A stretch of 25,811 nucleotides of DNA, from the IMG/VR virus record IMGVR_UViG_2778261502_000009. One strand, 5' to 3'. Position numbers and translations under genes: made by a program. The notes under the pieces were generated by a model. The model had not been told where the DNA came from and searched no databases. It was given only the letters and a program-made list of their open reading frames with translations. The stretch's first letter is position 1. Every line of letters begins with the position of its first letter. Origin of the DNA: a virus. Its lineage: Duplodnaviria > Heunggongvirae > Uroviricota > Caudoviricetes. Positions 10,919-24,172 of the stretch are shown here, in pieces.

Positions 10919-11200
10919 TGAGATTGTGGTGCTTTTTGTGGGAGTCATCCACTTACGCACTTTGTTTTGCCATGCCAGCAGTTAGCTTCTGCTGTAAAAC
11001 TATTCATGCAGCAAACCTGCACTTCACCACAATGGTTAGCATACTTTTCCTGATTAAGATTTTGCCAAATATGCTGGCCATTGTTTCATGTATTGGACCT
11101 CCTTAATTTTTATTAAAGAAATCCAATATTCACTACTCTGTCCGTATCTCTACTCAGGCATCAGCCTTCTTCGTTATCGTATACAGACGAGCGATGAATT

Positions 11201-11416
11201 TTAATCAGTAATGATGACATTTGCTGCTGCAGGACCTTTAGCACCACTCTCTATAGAGAAGGTAACCTTTTGACCTTCAAATAAGGTTCGATAATTATCA
11301 TTCTGAATCGCAGAAAAATGCACAAACACATCTTTACTACCATCAACAGGAGAAATAAAGCCGAAACCTTTATCAGCGTTAAACCATTTTACTAAACCAG
11401 TCATTTTATTTGACAT
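11201..11416 (-). CDS. cspB: Cold-shock protein (CspA family, CspB-like)
   Basis: 71 aa, [71 protein letters not shown]. Confidence 0.85.
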
Positions 11417-11716
11417 TCTACATTCCTTAACTTGAGCCTTTCGGCATAAATGGTTTGCATAACAGAAACGACTTCGTACTTAATTGGAGAGACTCAAAGA
11501 AGGAATAAGTGAATAACACCTGAAATGAGAACTGCTTTAGTAAACTACTTCGTATATCGTCTGTTCTTCAAACCGACGCAATCATTAACGCATAGTTGAA
11601 CATATGAAGCAATGTTTATTTTAGACATCCAGCCATCTTCAACCCCATCAAAAAACTATAGCTTTCTTCAGGAACGTGTGTATAGTGCGCCAAGTTATCA
11701 GTATTAAGGAATTTTT

Positions 11717-14512: not shown

Positions 14513-14764
14513 TTATTCTTCTGCAAAAGCTGAAAAGCCTGCTTTTATTCCGATCTCTTTCAGTGCCTGTAATGAAGTGACAAACTCACCTTCGCGCAAG
14601 ATAAATCTGTCTGTCACTCGACCATCCACAAAATTAATTAACGCAGCCCCATTCTTTCGCAAACACATAATGCGGTAATGACTAACAAGATTTCCATTTT
14701 CAACGCACACAGCATAGAGGCCATCTTCACAAAAAATTTTACGCAGTTCTTCGATGTTCATCAT
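14513..14764 (-). CDS. Hypothetical protein (83 aa)
   Basis: ORF-track entry MMNIEELRKIFCEDGLYAVCVENGNLVSHYRIM...; no recognisable motif. Confidence 0.4.
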   Translation of the reverse strand: MMNIEELRKIFCEDGLYAVCVENGNLVSHYRIMCLRKNGAALINFVDGRVTDRFILREGEFVTSLQALKEIGIKAGFSAFAEE

Positions 14765-14980: not shown

Positions 14981-15136
14981 TTACTCCTCAGGTTCGTAAG
15001 CTGTGAAGACAGCGACCTCCGTCTGGCCGGTTCGGATTCGTACCTCGCAGAGGTCTTTCCTCGTTACCAGTGCCGTCACTATGACGGTTAAACAGATGAC
15101 GATCAGGGCGATTAACATCGCCTTTTGCTGCTTCAT
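14981..15136 (-). CDS. hokD: Hok-family type I toxin (HokD/RelF-like)
   Basis: MKQQKAMLIALIVICLTVIVTALVTRKDLCEVRIRTGQTEVAVFTAYEPEE, 51 aa, from ATG 15136. The track ORF extends in frame upstream to 15193 (MLDTCRLASYVPKGKEKQS-). Confidence 0.85.
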   Translation of the reverse strand: MKQQKAMLIALIVICLTVIVTALVTRKDLCEVRIRTGQTEVAVFTAYEPEE

Positions 15137-15408
15137 AGACTGCTTCTCCTTGCCTTTCGGCACGTAAGAGGCTAACCTACATGTGTCTAGCATGAAATTG
15201 GCCTCAGATTAATGTTAAGCGTCTTGCAGGACGCGTAATGTTAACTGGGGCTTTTCTCTATCTGCCTTTGGTGTTCATGCCCGAGGCAGATAGCCTCAAG
15301 CACCCGCAGCCATTCTACTTAACTACCTTTACCTCGCCAATATGAAATCAGTCAGAAAGACGATCCATAAGAACAATAGCAAGATTTCTTAATGGAGATG
15401 GATGTAAG

Positions 15409-16896: not shown

Positions 16897-17213
16897 ATTT
16901 TCCTCTTTACATTACATTACCTTTATGTTTTTCCAAAATAAATCAAAGTCATATGGCGTATCAAGTTTTTTTGATTATTTATGAGCTCATACTCAAAAAA
17001 ATACTAAATCTAATTTATCTTACGTTAACTAAAGATTTCATATGTTAGTATGCTCAAGCAATGCTACTGCTGGAGTCTGATGATATCCGTTATACACTAA
17101 TTGCCACGCACACAAGCGACATCAGTTCATGGCACAAAGCAGACAACCACGCTACCTCTACCCTATGCCATGAAAATGTCAATTTACATCTTAACTAATG
17201 CACTTTAATCTCG

Positions 17214-18642: not shown

Positions 18643-19144
18643 AATTCCATCCAGCTTTTTGTTGGTATTGCAGTCGATACGCAAGTTTGAAAGCAATTGC
18701 TTTTTCTATAAGTTCGTCAGTTTCACGATCCACTACGGCAGGATCAGCAAAAAGCAGTCCGGACTCCACCACATCGCCATATTCTTTGTTTAACCCGGCG
18801 ATCATGTACGTGATGCTTTTTCCGTCACTAATTTCACGATACAACCTGAAATCATTAATCCGGATAGCCTCCATAATTGCAGGCACTAGCGCCGTGAACT
18901 TTTCACGCTTATCCCTAGTGTCGATAGCCTTCCAGCGTTCGAATATCTTCACTCGATTAACGCCAAGCGCTCGCTGATCAACCGCGCCACCTTCATCTGT
19001 GACACGCTGAACATCGATGTTCGGGCGCTCTTTCAAAGCCCAGAATGCTTCAGTGATTAATATCGTCGCCTGCTCCTGTGTCATTCCTGGTCGACATATC
19101 CAGGCATCCAGAGCCTCACGAGCCTGTTCAGGAGTGATTTTCAT
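18623..19144 (-). CDS. Hypothetical protein (173 aa) immediately downstream of dicC
   Basis: ORF-track entry. Overlaps the dicC 3' end by 17 nt and the replication gene start by 20 nt. No motif recognised. Confidence 0.45.
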   Translation of the reverse strand: MKITPEQAREALDAWICRPGMTQEQATILITEAFWALKERPNIDVQRVTDEGGAVDQRALGVNRVKIFERWKAIDTRDKREKFTALVPAIMEAIRINDFRLYREISDGKSITYMIAGLNKEYGDVVESGLLFADPAVVDRETDELIEKAIAFKLAYRLQYQQKAGWNYEPSFC

Positions 19145-19358
19145 TGTTCAATCGCCCCGCCCGCTTCGTCTTACGATATTCGTCATAAACTTTGGGATCA
19201 TACTGAAGCTCCCCGCCAGATGCCTCCTGTAGACGCATCGCGCGACCTTCAGGAACCAGTATCCCCCAAGCAGCAACACTTGCCAGTCTCACTCCTGCGG
19301 CATTGGCAAGCTTTGTTTTGCTGCCAAAAAAAGTAATTGCGTCAGCTTTAAGCATCAA
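19128..19358 (-). CDS. dicC: Cro-like repressor DicC
   Basis: 76 aa; ...LVPEGRAMRLQEASGGELQYDPKVYDEYRKTKRAGRLNNENHS matches my recollection of K-12 DicC. Divergent from dicA. Confidence 0.8.
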   Translation of the reverse strand: MMLKADAITFFGSKTKLANAAGVRLASVAAWGILVPEGRAMRLQEASGGELQYDPKVYDEYRKTKRAGRLNNENHS

Positions 19359-19368
19359 AGCCTCCTAT

Positions 19369-19386
19369 TGTTAGACTTTTCTAACA
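19369..19386. promoter_or_regulatory. Operator palindrome TGTTAG-N6-CTAACA in the dicC/dicA intergenic region
   Basis: tgttagacttttctaaca read directly; a second perfect copy lies at 19880..19897. Confidence 0.65.
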
Positions 19387-19435
19387 TTATTGTGCGCGGG
19401 ATACCTAAGTCAAGAAAAATTAGAATTACCTAACT

Positions 19436-19843
19436 ATGGATACAAGAACCCTAGGCCAGCGAGTTCTGGCGCGACGAAAAGAATTACGCTTAACACAACG
19501 AGAAGCTGCGCGCCTCGCTGGGGTTGCTCACGTCACAATTTCACAATGGGAAAGAGACGAAACCCAGCCAGTCGGAAAACGATTGTTTGCTTTAGCGGAT
19601 GCTCTGAAGTGCTCACCTACATGGCTAATGTTTGGTGACGAAGACAAGGCACCAGTGCCGGCACAAGAACTTCATGTGGAAACAGAGCTAACTCCCAACC
19701 ACAAAGAATTGATCGAATTATTCGATGCTCTTCCATCTTCCGAGCAGGAAGCCTTGCTGTCTGAAATGCGCGCAAGAGTAGAAAACTTCAACAAACTCTT
19801 CGAAGAAATGCTTAAAGCGCGTAAAAATAAATCAATAAAATAA
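19436..19843 (+). CDS. dicA: cI-like HTH repressor DicA
   Basis: 135 aa. XRE-type HTH (LTQREAARLAGVAHVTISQWERDETQP); C-terminal ...EMRARVENFNKLFEEMLKARK resembles K-12 DicA. Confidence 0.8.
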   Translation: MDTRTLGQRVLARRKELRLTQREAARLAGVAHVTISQWERDETQPVGKRLFALADALKCSPTWLMFGDEDKAPVPAQELHVETELTPNHKELIELFDALPSSEQEALLSEMRARVENFNKLFEEMLKARKNKSIK

Positions 19844-19879
19844 CATTCTTTTCAAGTGATTAGTTGCGCCCACTCTTTT

Positions 19880-19897
19880 TGTTAGACTAATCTAACA
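19880..19897. promoter_or_regulatory. Second operator palindrome TGTTAG-N6-CTAACA upstream of ydfA (dicB operon promoter region)
   Basis: tgttagactaatctaaca read directly; a degenerate third copy tgttaggttattctaa lies at 19916..19931. Confidence 0.65.
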
Positions 19898-20011
19898 AAA
19901 AACACTTGCCTCTTATGTTAGGTTATTCTAAATTACTTTCCATCAAGACACCGCACGGTGTTCTCAGCAAACAGTTCCGCTACCCCGGCGTTAAGGGGAA
20001 ATGAGGTCAGC

Positions 20012-20167
20012 ATGGATACTATCGATCTTGGCAACAGCGAATCTCTGGTATGTGGCGTGTTCCCCAACCAGGACGGCACGTTCACCGCGATGACGTATAC
20101 CAAAAGCAAAACGTTTAAAACCGAAAATGGTGCCCGTCGCTGGCTGGAAAGAAACTCAGGTGAGTGA
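20012..20167 (+). CDS. ydfA: YdfA-like small protein
   Basis: MDTIDLGNSESLVCGVFPNQDGTFTAMTYTKSKTFKTENGARRWLERNSGE from ATG 20012 (GAGG 4-5 nt upstream); part of track ORF 19958..20167. Confidence 0.75.
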   Translation: MDTIDLGNSESLVCGVFPNQDGTFTAMTYTKSKTFKTENGARRWLERNSGE

Positions 20168-20168
20168 T

Positions 20169-20744
20169 ATGGATTTCGACACAATCATGGAAAAGGCTTA
20201 CGAAGAATACTTCGAAGGCCTTGCCGAAGGCGAAGAAGCTCTCAGCTTCAGTGAGTTTAAACAGGCACTCAGAATAAGAATGTGCTCTCACAATGACGCG
20301 GAGCACAAATATGAGAAGCAAACTCAGACCGCAGAAAATTTTGTTCTGGAACCCGGAGAAACGCTTTTCAAAATTCCCGTTACGTGCCCCATTTGCGGTT
20401 TTACATCAGAAGAACTTGACGACTCCTGTAACAATCAGGAAACAACCAAGTATGTCGAAGATGATACTGAGTGCGCACGAAGAACGATTATATCCACGAG
20501 TCCAAACTCCAGGATCAATAAATCTCACTTTGAGAGGGTGATTAATCCACTCCCCCAAACCAATAAAAAAGATGCCGGAGGACAAAAAACCCAATGGAAC
20601 AACGGGATATCTGTCAAAAAAAGACGTTCCATTAAAGACAAACAACGCAGCGCCAACAACTGTAAGCGCTTTATACCAGTAATCAATTTTCATGTTCTTA
20701 AGCGGATTTATTGGTGGTTGCGACATTGCTTAATGAATCCTTAA
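20169..20744 (+). CDS. Hypothetical protein (191 aa) in the ydfB/ydfC position
   Basis: ATG 20169 lies 1 nt after the ydfA stop. N-terminal MDFDTIMEKAYEEYFEGLAEGEE... resembles K-12 YdfB from memory, but the ORF continues for 191 aa and has one CPICG motif. Confidence 0.5.
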   Translation: MDFDTIMEKAYEEYFEGLAEGEEALSFSEFKQALRIRMCSHNDAEHKYEKQTQTAENFVLEPGETLFKIPVTCPICGFTSEELDDSCNNQETTKYVEDDTECARRTIISTSPNSRINKSHFERVINPLPQTNKKDAGGQKTQWNNGISVKKRRSIKDKQRSANNCKRFIPVINFHVLKRIYWWLRHCLMNP

Positions 20745-21003: not shown

Positions 21004-21061
21004 TTTCTGGTGACGTTTGGCGGTATCAGTTTTACTCCGTGACTGCTCTGCCGCCGTTTTT
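21004..21061 (+). ncRNA. dicF: DicF small RNA (ftsZ-targeting), ending in an intrinsic terminator
   Basis: tttctggtgacgtttggcggtatcagttttactccgtgactgctctgccgccgttttt matches the DicF sequence as I remember it. GGCGG...CCGCC stem followed by a T-run. Located between the ydfB/C-like gene and dicB. Confidence 0.65.
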
Positions 21062-21230: not shown

Positions 21231-21419
21231 ATGAAAACGTTATTACCAAACGTTAATACGTCTGAAGGTTGTTTTGAAATTGGTGTCACTATCAGTAACC
21301 CTGTATTTACTGAAGATGCCATTAACAAGAGAAAACAAGAACGGGAGCTATTAAATAAAATATGCATTGTTTCAATGCTGGCTCGTTTACGTCTGATGCC
21401 AAAAGGATGTGCACAATGA
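21231..21419 (+). CDS. dicB: Cell-division inhibitor DicB
   Basis: MKTLLPNVNTSEGCFEIGVTISNPVFTEDAINKRKQERELLNKICIVSMLARLRLMPKGCAQ (62 aa). GAGGA lies 8 nt upstream of ATG 21231. Part of track ORF 21126..21419. Confidence 0.85.
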   Translation: MKTLLPNVNTSEGCFEIGVTISNPVFTEDAINKRKQERELLNKICIVSMLARLRLMPKGCAQ

Positions 21420-21700: not shown

Positions 21701-24172
21701 ATGAGTAAAGTCTTTATTTGCGCCGCTATTCCTGACGAACTGGCAACAAGGGAAGAAGGCGCTGTGGCTGTAGCCACAGCCATTGAAGCTGGCGACGAAC
21801 GCCGTGCTCGAGCAAAATTTCACTGGCAATTCCTGGAACATTATCCGGCTGCTCAGGACTGCGCTTATAAATTTATTGTCTGCGAGGATAAACCTGGCAT
21901 ACCCCGCCCTGCCCTCGATTCATGGGATGCTGAATATATGCAGGAAAACCGCTGGGATGAGGAGTCTGCTTCTTTTGTCCCGGTTGAGACTGAATCCGAT
22001 CCGATGAACGTCACTTTTGACAAGCTGGCCCCTGAAGTACAGAACGCTGTCATGGTTAAGTTCGACACATGTGAAAACATCACCGTTGATATGGTGATTA
22101 GCGCACAGGAATTGTTGCAGGAAGACATGGCAACATTCGACGGACATATCGTTGAAGCGTTGATGAAAATGCCAGAAGTTAACGCCATGTATCCGGAGCT
22201 TAAGTTGCACGCCATTGGGTGGGTTAAGCATAAATGTATTCCTGGTGCTAAATGGCCCGAAATTCAGGCAGAGATGCGCATCTGGAAAAAACGTCGCGAA
22301 GGTGAACGCAAGGAAACCGGAAAATACACGTCTGTTGTTGATCTCGCCCGCGCCAGAGCCAATCAACAGTACACTGAAAATTCAACAGGAAAAATCAGCC
22401 CGGTCATTGCTGCCATTCATCGCGAATACAAGCAGACATGGAAAACACTGGATGACGAACTGGCCTACGCTCTCTGGCCTGGTGATGTGGATGCCGGAAA
22501 CATTGACGGCAGCATCCATCGCTGGGCAAAAAAAGAAGTTATCGACAACGACCGCGAAGACTGGAAGCGTATCTCGGCATCAATGCGCAAACAGCCTGAT
22601 GCCCTTCGCTACGACCGCCAAACTATTTTTGGCCTTGTCCGTGAGCGTCCGATCGACATTCACAAAGATCCCGTAGCACTGAACAAATATACCTGCGAAT
22701 ACCTGACGACAAAGGGCGTGTTTGAGAATGAAGAAACAGACCTGGGCACTGTTGATGTTCTCCAGTCATCAGAAACACAAACTGATGCAGTGGAAACTGA
22801 GGTATCTGATATCCCAAAAAATGAAACCGCGCCGGAAGCTGAACCATCTGTAGAGCGTGAGGGGCCGTTCTATTTCCTCTTCGCAGATAAGGACGGAGAA
22901 AAATACGGTCGCGCAAACAAACTTTCTGGTCTGGATAAGGCACTGGCTGCTGGCGCCACTGAAATCACAAAAGAAGAATATTTTGCCCGAAAAAATGGCA
23001 CATACACGGGCTTACCGCAAAATGTAGATACTGCTGAAGATTCAGAACAACCAGAGCCGATAAAAGTTACCGCTGACGAAGTAAACAAAATTATGCAGGC
23101 AGCCAATATCAGCCAGCCTGACGCCGATAAGTTGCTTGCTGCATCACGTGGTGAATTTGTTGAAGGGATTAGTGACCCGAATGATCCGAAATGGGTTAAG
23201 GGGATCCAGACCCGCGATTCTGTGAACCAGAACCAGCATGAATCGGAACGGAACTACCAAAAAGCGGAACAAAACAGTCCAAATGCGTTACAAAACGAGC
23301 CAGAAACGAAACAGCCTGAACCAGTGGCGCACCAGGAAGTGGAAAAAGCCTGCACCGCCTGCGGTCAGACCGGCGGCGGCAACTGCCCTGATTGTGGCGC
23401 GGTGATGGGCGACGCAACATACCAGGAAACATTCGATGAAGAGTATCAGGTTGAAGTTCAGGAAGATGATCCGGAGGAAATGGAAGGCGCTGAACATCCA
23501 CACAAGGAGAACACTGGCGGCAATCAGCATCACAATAGCGATAATGAAACTGGCGAGACGGCAGATCACCCAATTAAGGTGAACGGTCATCACGAAATCA
23601 CATCCACCAGCAGGACGTGTGACCATCTAATGATCGACCTTGAAACCATGGGAAAAAATCCTGATGCCCCGATCATCTCAATAGGTGCAATATTTTTCGA
23701 TCCGCAAACCGGAGATATGGGACCGGAATTTAGTAAGACTATCGATCTGGAAACTGCTGGCGGAGTCATTGATCGGGACACCATTAAATGGTGGCTTAAG
23801 CAATCACGCGAAGCGCAATCTGCCATTATGACCGATGAAATCCCGTTAGATGATGCACTGTTACAATTGCGGGAATTTATCGACGAAAACTCCGGTGAAT
23901 TTTTTGTTCAGGTTTGGGGAAATGGAGCCAACTTCGACAACACGATTTTGCGCCGTTCATACGAACGGCAGGGGATCCCCTGCCCGTGGCGTTACTACAA
24001 CGATCGCGATGTACGCACAATCGTTGAGCTGGGGAAAGCCATAGACTTCGATGCCAGAACGGCTATTCCATTCGAAGGTGAGCGCCATAATGCACTTGAT
24101 GACGCCCGTTACCAGGCAAAATACGTTTCAGTTATCTGGCAAAAACTGATCCCGAGTCAGGCTGATTCTTAA
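21701..24172 (+). CDS. Large acidic protein with a C-terminal DEDDh (DnaQ-like) 3'-5' exonuclease domain (YdfE-like position)
   Basis: 823 aa. Exo motifs [21 protein letters not shown] and [13 protein letters not shown] in the last ~190 aa. Upstream zinc ribbon [16 protein letters not shown]. The N-terminal ~600 aa have no recognisable family. Confidence 0.65.

Follow-up and report, generated by a model that had tools for sequence, protein, structure and literature searches.

Probable operators of a P22-like immunity switch around a diverged dicA allele in a Qin-type prophage of E. coli

Palindromes of the form TGTTAG-N6-CTAACA bracket a dicA-like repressor gene in the stretch of DNA analysed here (25,811 nucleotides, hereafter the window), which belongs to a lambdoid prophage of the Qin type in E. 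coli. These palindromes very probably (probability about 0.87) serve as operators in an immunity switch of the P22-like (immC) type. The system is already known: descriptions of the DicA/DicC switch, of its Oc operator and of the P22-like layout date from 1986–1988, with re-examinations in 2012, 2023 and 2024. What appears to be new, from sequence comparison, is that a dicA allele 55% identical to K-12 DicA keeps the same operator code. Curated databases list the DicA site at dicB as 'location unknown', and the Reg-Seq paper describes it, at the level of RegulonDB evidence, as 'low-evidence, location unknown' (PMC7567609); at the level of sequence, the comparative data presented here place DicA/DicC sites at the dicB-operon promoter more clearly than has been done so far. 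Real operators were recognisable from sequence alone, and the biology added is little. A widespread alternative dicA allele with K-12 operator specificity nevertheless bears on toxic dicB/DicF cross-regulation among co-resident prophages.

Segment 19100-20200 displays 99.8% identity to E. coli TUM14759 by megablast, and at least 80% of it is present in 565 of 5,426 complete E. coli genomes; with the same query, K-12-type loci match at the DNA level in the flanks only. The relevant genes are as follows.

14513..14764, minus strand: rem antirepressor, an ORF annotated rem in a near-identical prophage
19128..19355, minus strand: dicC-like Cro-family gene, 75 aa (Pfam P22_Cro PF14549, 1.1e-12), 87% identical to K-12 DicC
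19436..19843, plus strand: dicA-like repressor, 135 aa, with an N-terminal HTH domain (Pfam HTH_3, 1.5e-14)
20012..20167, plus strand: ydfA (Pfam DUF1391, 8.8e-28), first gene of the dicB operon
21005..21056, plus strand: DicF sRNA, inside the dicB operon (Rfam RF00039, 72.5 bits)
21231..21419, plus strand: dicB cell-division inhibitor, 62 aa, an ORF annotated dicB in a near-identical genome

Beyond dicC, the minus strand carries a YdaT-family gene and an O-like replication gene. The plus-strand order is repressor, ydfA, DicF, dicB, ydfD and exonuclease, and dicB is the payload of the repressed operon. At 55% identity, the dicA-like repressor is a diverged allele, other than that of K-12. Its N-terminal domain matches the P22 C2 structures 1adr, 2r1j and 3jxb with E values of 1e-18 to 1e-17 (best 1.3e-18). 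A Peptidase_S24 domain was not found by Pfam in the 135 residues of this protein, in agreement with PMC10448788; P22 C2 has 216 aa.

The sites and promoters of the two regions that flank the repressor gene are listed below; sites are without strand.

19369..19386: O1, at the position of K-12 Oc and P22 OR1; TGTTAGA-cttt-TCTAACA, an exact match lying over the dicC promoter -10/+1
19386..19413, minus strand: dicC (PR-equivalent) promoter; TTGACT at 19413-19408, a 16-bp spacer and AATAAT at 19391-19386
19393..19410: P22 OR2 / K-12 Om position; TGCGCGG-gata-CCTAAGT, assigned by positional homology (P22 OR2 is at -43)
19418..19435: Oa-type degenerate operator at the P22 OR3 position; AATTAG-aattac-CTAACT, 3 mismatches
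19857..19874: possible third, distal PL-side site; left half-site GATTAG only, low confidence
19880..19897: O2; TGTTAGA-ctaa-TCTAACA, an exact match, with an extended dyad at 19876-19901
19906..19934, plus strand: dicBp (PL-equivalent), predicted; -35 TTGCCT at 19906-19911, a 17-bp spacer and -10 TAAATT at 19929-19934
19916..19933: O3, the promoter-proximal operator; TGTTAGG-ttat-TCTAAAT, 2 mismatches

The exact motif is found twice in the 25.8 kb window, at 19369-19386 (TGTTAGACTTTTCTAACA) and 19880-19897 (TGTTAGACTAATCTAACA). It did not occur in 100 dinucleotide-preserving shuffles of the window, and base composition predicts 0.002 copies per window (probability of two or more, ~2e-6). A first-pass annotation of this DNA had described two perfect 18-bp palindromes and a degenerate third copy. 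With two exact matches against ~0.002 expected, the palindromes are real, and both pairs of coordinates hold; the perfect symmetry does not, as it is limited to the inverted arms. The O1 dyad is 7+4+7 and the O2 dyad 11+4+11 (19876-19901), and their centres are non-symmetric. The degenerate third copy, O3, likewise exists, but the end given for it, 19931, falls 2 bp short of the true span, 19916-19933 (TGTTAGGTTATTCTAAAT); its 2 mismatches are the final two bases of the right arm. A fourth copy, which that annotation lacked, is located at 19418-19435 (AATTAGAATTACCTAACT), has 3 mismatches and adjoins the dicA ATG. The placement given for the sites also holds: O1 is within the 77-bp dicC/dicA intergenic region, and O2 and O3 are upstream of ydfA, 37-90 bp past the dicA stop codon and 79-132 bp before the ydfA ATG (20012).

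Sites with up to 3 mismatches number 13 in the window, versus 10.1 expected, and this class is therefore not enriched. Because it occurs at chance frequency, the case for the degenerate copies comes from their position and cross-species conservation. Two 2-mismatch matches elsewhere, at 7046-7063 (TGTTAGAAAACGACAACA) and 17043-17060 (TGTTAGTATGCTCAAGCA), were taken as chance, since the counts are within expectation. By their sequence, O1 and O2 appear to be strong operators. The 19393..19410 position, which overlaps the dicC -35, shows half-site likeness in its right half only; the operator motif was not detected there with up to 3 mismatches, and this position would represent a weak or non-functional operator. 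On the other side, a nnTTAG/nnTTAn half-site ~23 bp upstream of O2 appears, by eye, to recur in E. coli, E. albertii and Buttiauxella loci. The switch has more than three sites, with the fourth conserved degenerate site and the half-sites at the third-P22-operator positions. Information content of the motif is 2 bits at positions 3-6, 13 and 16, 1.7 bits at 14-15, and low at 7-8 and 11-12.

The dicC promoter matches the sigma-70 consensus at 10 of 12 positions in the promoter scan, and its -35 is invariant in the alignment with related loci. Base 19386 belongs to both its -10 and O1, within which the predicted start also lies. The dicBp promoter scores 8/12, which is under the promoter-scan threshold, and was located by reading the sequence; it aligns column for column with the K-12 CTTGACC...TAATCT and the P22 PL CTTGACC...TAAATT. 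A mapped dicBp transcription start was not found in the literature searched. The order upstream of ydfA is O2, 8 bp, the -35, 4 bp and O3, with the -10 TAAATT within the right arm of O3. O2 and O3 therefore flank the -35, and O3 fills the spacer and -10.

A candidate dicA -10, TAGAAT at 19421-19426, overlaps the 19418..19435 site and is 9 bp before the ATG. No Shine-Dalgarno sequence is present before dicA in the 19418-19438 region examined, and CTAACTATG is common to the dicA upstream sequence and P22 c2. Since there is no Shine-Dalgarno and the -10 is only 9 bp before the ATG, the dicA mRNA is probably leaderless. The lambda cI mRNA transcribed from PRM is leaderless. A consensus dicA promoter was not found in K-12 by Yun et al. 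(PMC3441716).

Directly past the predicted dicB-operon start there is a hairpin, ACACC-gcac-GGTGT, at 19946-19963, followed by a conserved CTCAG...GTTCCGC. The hairpin is found in all E. coli immunity classes, and at its place Enterobacter, Citrobacter, Pantoea and phiES15 have other self-complementary sequences, e.g. AATCAC-cgcaca-GTGATT. RNAalifold gave no consensus pairs for this leader hairpin, the MAFFT alignment having left the arms out of register. Possible roles for the hairpin are those of a stabilising stem at the 5' end, a nut-like element or a processing element.

Conservation was assessed in DicA-type loci from E. ruysiae and E. albertii (repressors 99-100% identical), two Citrobacter species and Buttiauxella (73-74%), and Enterobacter, Pantoea and Erwinia (65-68%), together with the K-12 locus and a third E. 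coli allele. Syntenic palindromes are present in every homologous locus examined. Pairwise identity at O1–O3 in Escherichia, Citrobacter, Buttiauxella and K-12 is 0.92-1.00 for arms versus 0.38-0.49 for spacers. In the set of 7 loci defined by an (A/S)HV(T/S)(I/V)SQWE recognition helix and Arg at helix-2 position 2, these values are 1.00 for the arms of O1 versus 0.49 for its spacer, 0.95 for the left arm of O2 versus 0.49, and 0.92 for the left arm of O3 versus 0.38. O1 starts at -67 or -68 from the repressor ATG in this set. The arms of the Oa-type 19418-19435 site are 0.90 and 1.00 identical across genera.

A scan of viral contigs with a 7-allele profile found 80 loci, nearly all 94-100% identical to the window allele. 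As these loci were too alike, distant covariation was sought by tblastn of phage records, and the contigs served for polymorphism, which was counted at O2 and O3 by anchored regex. O1 has no arm variants in 77 allele-A contigs, and 19418..19435 is invariant in 77 contigs. In 78 contigs the common polymorphism of O2 is all central (minor-allele counts 26, 15 and 5), with one arm change in one locus; O3 shows one and the same sequence in 76 of the 78, and the two variants differ in the centre. Conserved arms and drifting centres are the pattern expected of operators for a dimeric HTH protein, and the arms are under purifying selection.

A distant occurrence of the module was observed in the Stenotrophomonas maltophilia phage vB_SmeS_BUCT709, whose DicA-type repressor is 52% identical and has window-type helices. 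This phage displays a perfect TGTTAGAttttTCTAACA at -68 (621-638 of the fetched locus), an Oa-type site and a dicBp-like promoter. Here a phage of another order carries an immunity module that looks enterobacterial.

Five repressor classes with differing helices 2 and 3 have five different dyads at the same positions. Besides the window class, the pairings are:

Helix 2 QAA, helix 3 as in the window (Enterobacter, Pantoea, Erwinia, phage PPompW): CCTTAGr-N4-yCTAAGG
Helix 3 SGSSISLWE (E. coli SJC33 and O111, phage HannyBb): ATTGAG-N4-CTCAAT
Helix 3 SSVSVFKWE (Cronobacter phage phiES15): ACTAAC-N4-GTTAGT
Helix 3 SNVAISQWE (P22 C2): ATTTAAG-N4-CTTAAAT

In the ATTGAG class, which has another recognition helix, cognate degenerate copies flank the dicBp -35 and occupy -17, and the O3 position has AATGAGaaaaCTAAAT instead. 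Where the second residue of helix 2 is Arg, half-site positions 1-2 are TG (7/7 loci), and where it is Ala they are CC (4/4 loci), with helix 3 identical and DicC 92% identical. DicC tracks the core, being 87-92% identical among TTAG...CTAA loci, and has a P22-Cro-like HTH in the ATTGAG class. Thus the sites covary with the DNA-binding helices of both repressor and Cro.

The K-12 locus offers the closest functional comparison. K-12 Oc, 5'-TTGTTAGTCATAACTAACAA, is bound by DicA in vivo, and a single A-to-C change in its CTAACA abolishes binding (Yun et al., 2012; PMC3441716). Oc and the dicC -10 overlap; DicA bound at Oc represses dicC and is required for dicA transcription, and the K-12 dicCp start was mapped by 5'RACE (PMC3441716). 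Two further K-12 sites predicted from sequence, Om and Oa, were unbound by DicA in isolation (data not shown in PMC3441716). DicA represses K-12 dicBp 22-fold, and Rem, an antirepressor that relieves DicA repression, derepresses it 165-fold (Ragunathan et al., 2023; PMC10448788). Operators at the dicA-dicC and dicA-dicBp regions were proposed by Bejar in 1988, as restated in PMC10448788. K-12 DicC gives ChIP-seq sites that flank dicA, and their motif is TTnG...CnAA (2024 preprint; PMC11430063); this motif and layout are the core and the dicA-bracketing arrangement of the window.

O1 has the same half-sites, 6-bp spacing and position as K-12 Oc. The DicA binding mapped in K-12 accordingly falls at the equivalent of O1. 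In both systems an operator lies over the dicC -10, a pair of sites flanks the -35 of the promoter before ydfA, the Oa position corresponds to 19418-19435, the gene order is dicC, dicA, ydfA, DicF, dicB and ydfD, and the repressor is a 135-aa protein without an S24 domain. The recognition helix differs, SHVSVSQWE in K-12 versus AHVTISQWE in the window, as do the promoter sites: both K-12 dicBp sites have 2 mismatches, whereas the distal dicBp site of the window is a perfect dyad. In addition, the window prophage keeps, downstream of dicC, ydaT and the replication genes, all of which K-12 has lost. We infer that the DicA allele described here would bind O1–O3, with O2 and O3 occupied and binding cooperative. 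Because the DicC ChIP-seq sites flank dicA and have the TTnG...CnAA motif, DicA and DicC probably share sites; it is very probable that DicC, as the Cro analogue, also binds the sites described here.

Similarity to P22 immC was noted by Bejar et al. in 1986, according to the account of Yun et al. (PMC3441716). The N-terminal domain of the repressor is homologous to C2 (E=1e-18), and its partner DicC falls in the P22_Cro family. P22 repressor recognizes 18-bp sites, with contacts at positions 2-7 and 12-17 and the central four bp free (PMC4267663). The sites of the window are likewise 18-bp dyads with conserved outer arms and a variable central 4 bp, and the window regions align base for base with P22 OR and OL. 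Measured from the repressor ATG, the OR dyads begin at -66, -43 and -18 in P22, and at -67 and -18 in the window. Around PL, P22 and the window alike have a dyad that fills the spacer and -10, plus a second directly upstream of the -35. The half-sites differ, ATTTAAG in P22 versus TGTTAGA in the window. P22 has three good OR sites, whereas the middle position of the window is a half-site only; in place of three operators per OR and OL, there are two recognisable sites on each side and half-sites at 19393-19410 and 19857-19874. C2 has a RecA-cleavable C-terminal domain, whereas that of DicA is short and unrelated, with release by antirepressor.

The lambda immunity region shares the divergent repressor and cro genes, operators that overlap PR, PRM and PL, the bistable switch, and two operator clusters that bracket the repressor gene, but operator sequence homology is not detectable. 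Lambda has features of its own, namely sites of 17 bp, of which each cluster has three, looping by cooperative octamers, and induction through RecA.

The first-pass annotation had read the palindromes as means by which DicA represses both its own switch region and the dicB operon. The half-sites and spacing that O1 shares with Oc, the overlap with promoters, the conservation and the covariation with helices all support this proposal. A DicA-type dimer would bind each 18-bp site through its HTH, contacting the outer arms (core TTAG...CTAA) and leaving the central ~4 bp free. At O1, DicA would cover the dicC promoter -10 and start and shut off the dicC-ydaT-replication operon, and its binding there may stimulate dicA transcription, as in K-12. 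At O2 and O3, it would flank the -35 and cover the dicBp spacer and -10, keeping ydfA-DicF-dicB-ydfD off. DicC would read the same core and, when made, would repress dicA, probably through 19418-19435, which lies over the dicA -10 and ATG. Mutual control by DicA and DicC would then constitute a bistable switch. Since the repressor has no RecA-cleavable domain, release might come by way of the Rem antirepressor, stress or stochastic flipping. The 19418..19435 site is a likely candidate for DicC repression of dicA, or for negative autoregulation by DicA; on its own it may not be a DicA site, because K-12 Om and Oa are unbound in isolation.

Several other explanations deserve consideration. The most credible, although unlikely, makes the degenerate copies weak sites, or sites that are filled only cooperatively. 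In its strict form, only the two perfect sites would be functional, and O3 and 19418-19435 would be promoter or leader sequence that resembles the motif through P22 ancestry. Sites with up to 3 mismatches do occur at chance frequency in the window, Om and Oa are not bound by K-12 DicA in isolation (PMC3441716), and the right arm of O3 coincides with the -10 TAAATT, which would be conserved in any case. However, K-12 dicBp has 2-mismatch sites only and is still repressed 22-fold by DicA (PMC10448788). The left arm of O3, TGTTAG, is no promoter element, yet its identity is 0.92 versus 0.38 for the spacer, and it is swapped for the cognate half-site in the ATTGAG class; the arms of 19418-19435 are themselves conserved at 0.90 and 1.00. 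A different proposal, that the sites are operators of DicC only and that this DicA allele acts elsewhere or nowhere, draws on the K-12 DicC ChIP-seq sites on both sides of dicA with their palindromic TTnG...CnAA (PMC11430063), and on DicC being 87-92% conserved among TTAG...CTAA loci and differing in its HTH in the ATTGAG class. It is very unlikely, given that K-12 DicA binds Oc sequence-specifically (PMC3441716) and that the outer half-site bases, TG versus CC, follow helix 2 of DicA while DicC stays 92% identical, which indicates a contribution of DicA. Moreover, the sharing of operators by Cro and repressor is the norm in this family, and DicC binding is therefore compatible with DicA binding.

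The O2 palindrome might also be viewed as an RNA hairpin or a transcription terminator at the end of dicA. It is 37 bp past the dicA stop, would form an 11-bp RNA stem, and the 72-nt region folds with -12.4 kcal/mol (z = -2.7). The stem is AT-rich, however, and the same arms are present at O1 and O3, where a terminator would be senseless. The arm sequence is conserved across genera beyond what pairing requires, and other immunity classes have the allele-specific half-site. A terminator scan finds none at O2, and since a U-tract is absent after the stem on both strands, the terminator was rejected; RNA function of this palindrome is highly improbable. Scarcely credible is the notion that the sites arose by chance, or are remnants decaying in a dead prophage, and do nothing today. 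Elements of the Qin type are often defective, and the repressor is frameshifted in the closest complete genome and in three loci of other strains. Against this, the chance expectation is ~0.002, the arms are invariant beside varying bases both within E. coli and across genera, and the same module is present in the inducible or propagating phages phiES15, HannyBb and PPompW.

With the palindromes read as operators of a P22-like switch, a tentative proposal, its odds perhaps somewhat short of even, is that Qin-type prophages with different dicA alleles are homoimmune through a shared operator code, and that class specificity is re-tuned mainly by helix 2. If this is true, the dicB/DicF operons of one such prophage would be silenced by another in polylysogenic E. 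coli, and vice versa. More speculative is the idea that O1 and O2, which are 511 bp apart around dicA, are bridged by a DicA-mediated DNA loop.

Some observations on gene content may be added. In E. coli TUM14759, the closest complete genome, dicB is intact but the repressor gene carries a frameshift (1837-2243 of the fetched locus); three further loci, one from E. coli and two from Shigella flexneri, also have it as a pseudogene. Strains with a broken repressor gene must keep dicB silent otherwise, perhaps by the homoimmune DicA of another prophage. The host factor YjdC, mentioned in PMC11430063, is perhaps an alternative dicB silencer in such strains.

Downstream of ydfA, the ydfB frame extends over 20169-20744 (plus strand) and encodes 191 aa versus the usual ~42, and ydfC is apparently missing. 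A 105-aa ORF with hydrophobic stretches is located antisense inside the extended frame, at 20406-20726 (minus strand). Neither this ORF nor the 191-aa one has a Pfam match, and the 20169-20744 region may be a moron or a replacement cassette between ydfB and DicF. The 823-aa 'exonuclease' at 21701-24172 (plus strand) has as its sole Pfam match a C-terminal Rv2179c-like 3'-5' exoribonuclease domain (residues 642-813, 2.4e-67), and the ~640 N-terminal residues match no Pfam family. Elsewhere, two cspA-type thermoregulator 5' UTRs are found at 8289-8674 and 11185-11577, both on the minus strand and belonging to prophage cold-shock genes, and a sok antitoxin RNA is beside hokD at 15134-15305 (minus strand). 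These cspA-type UTRs and sok/hokD are typical Qin cargo.
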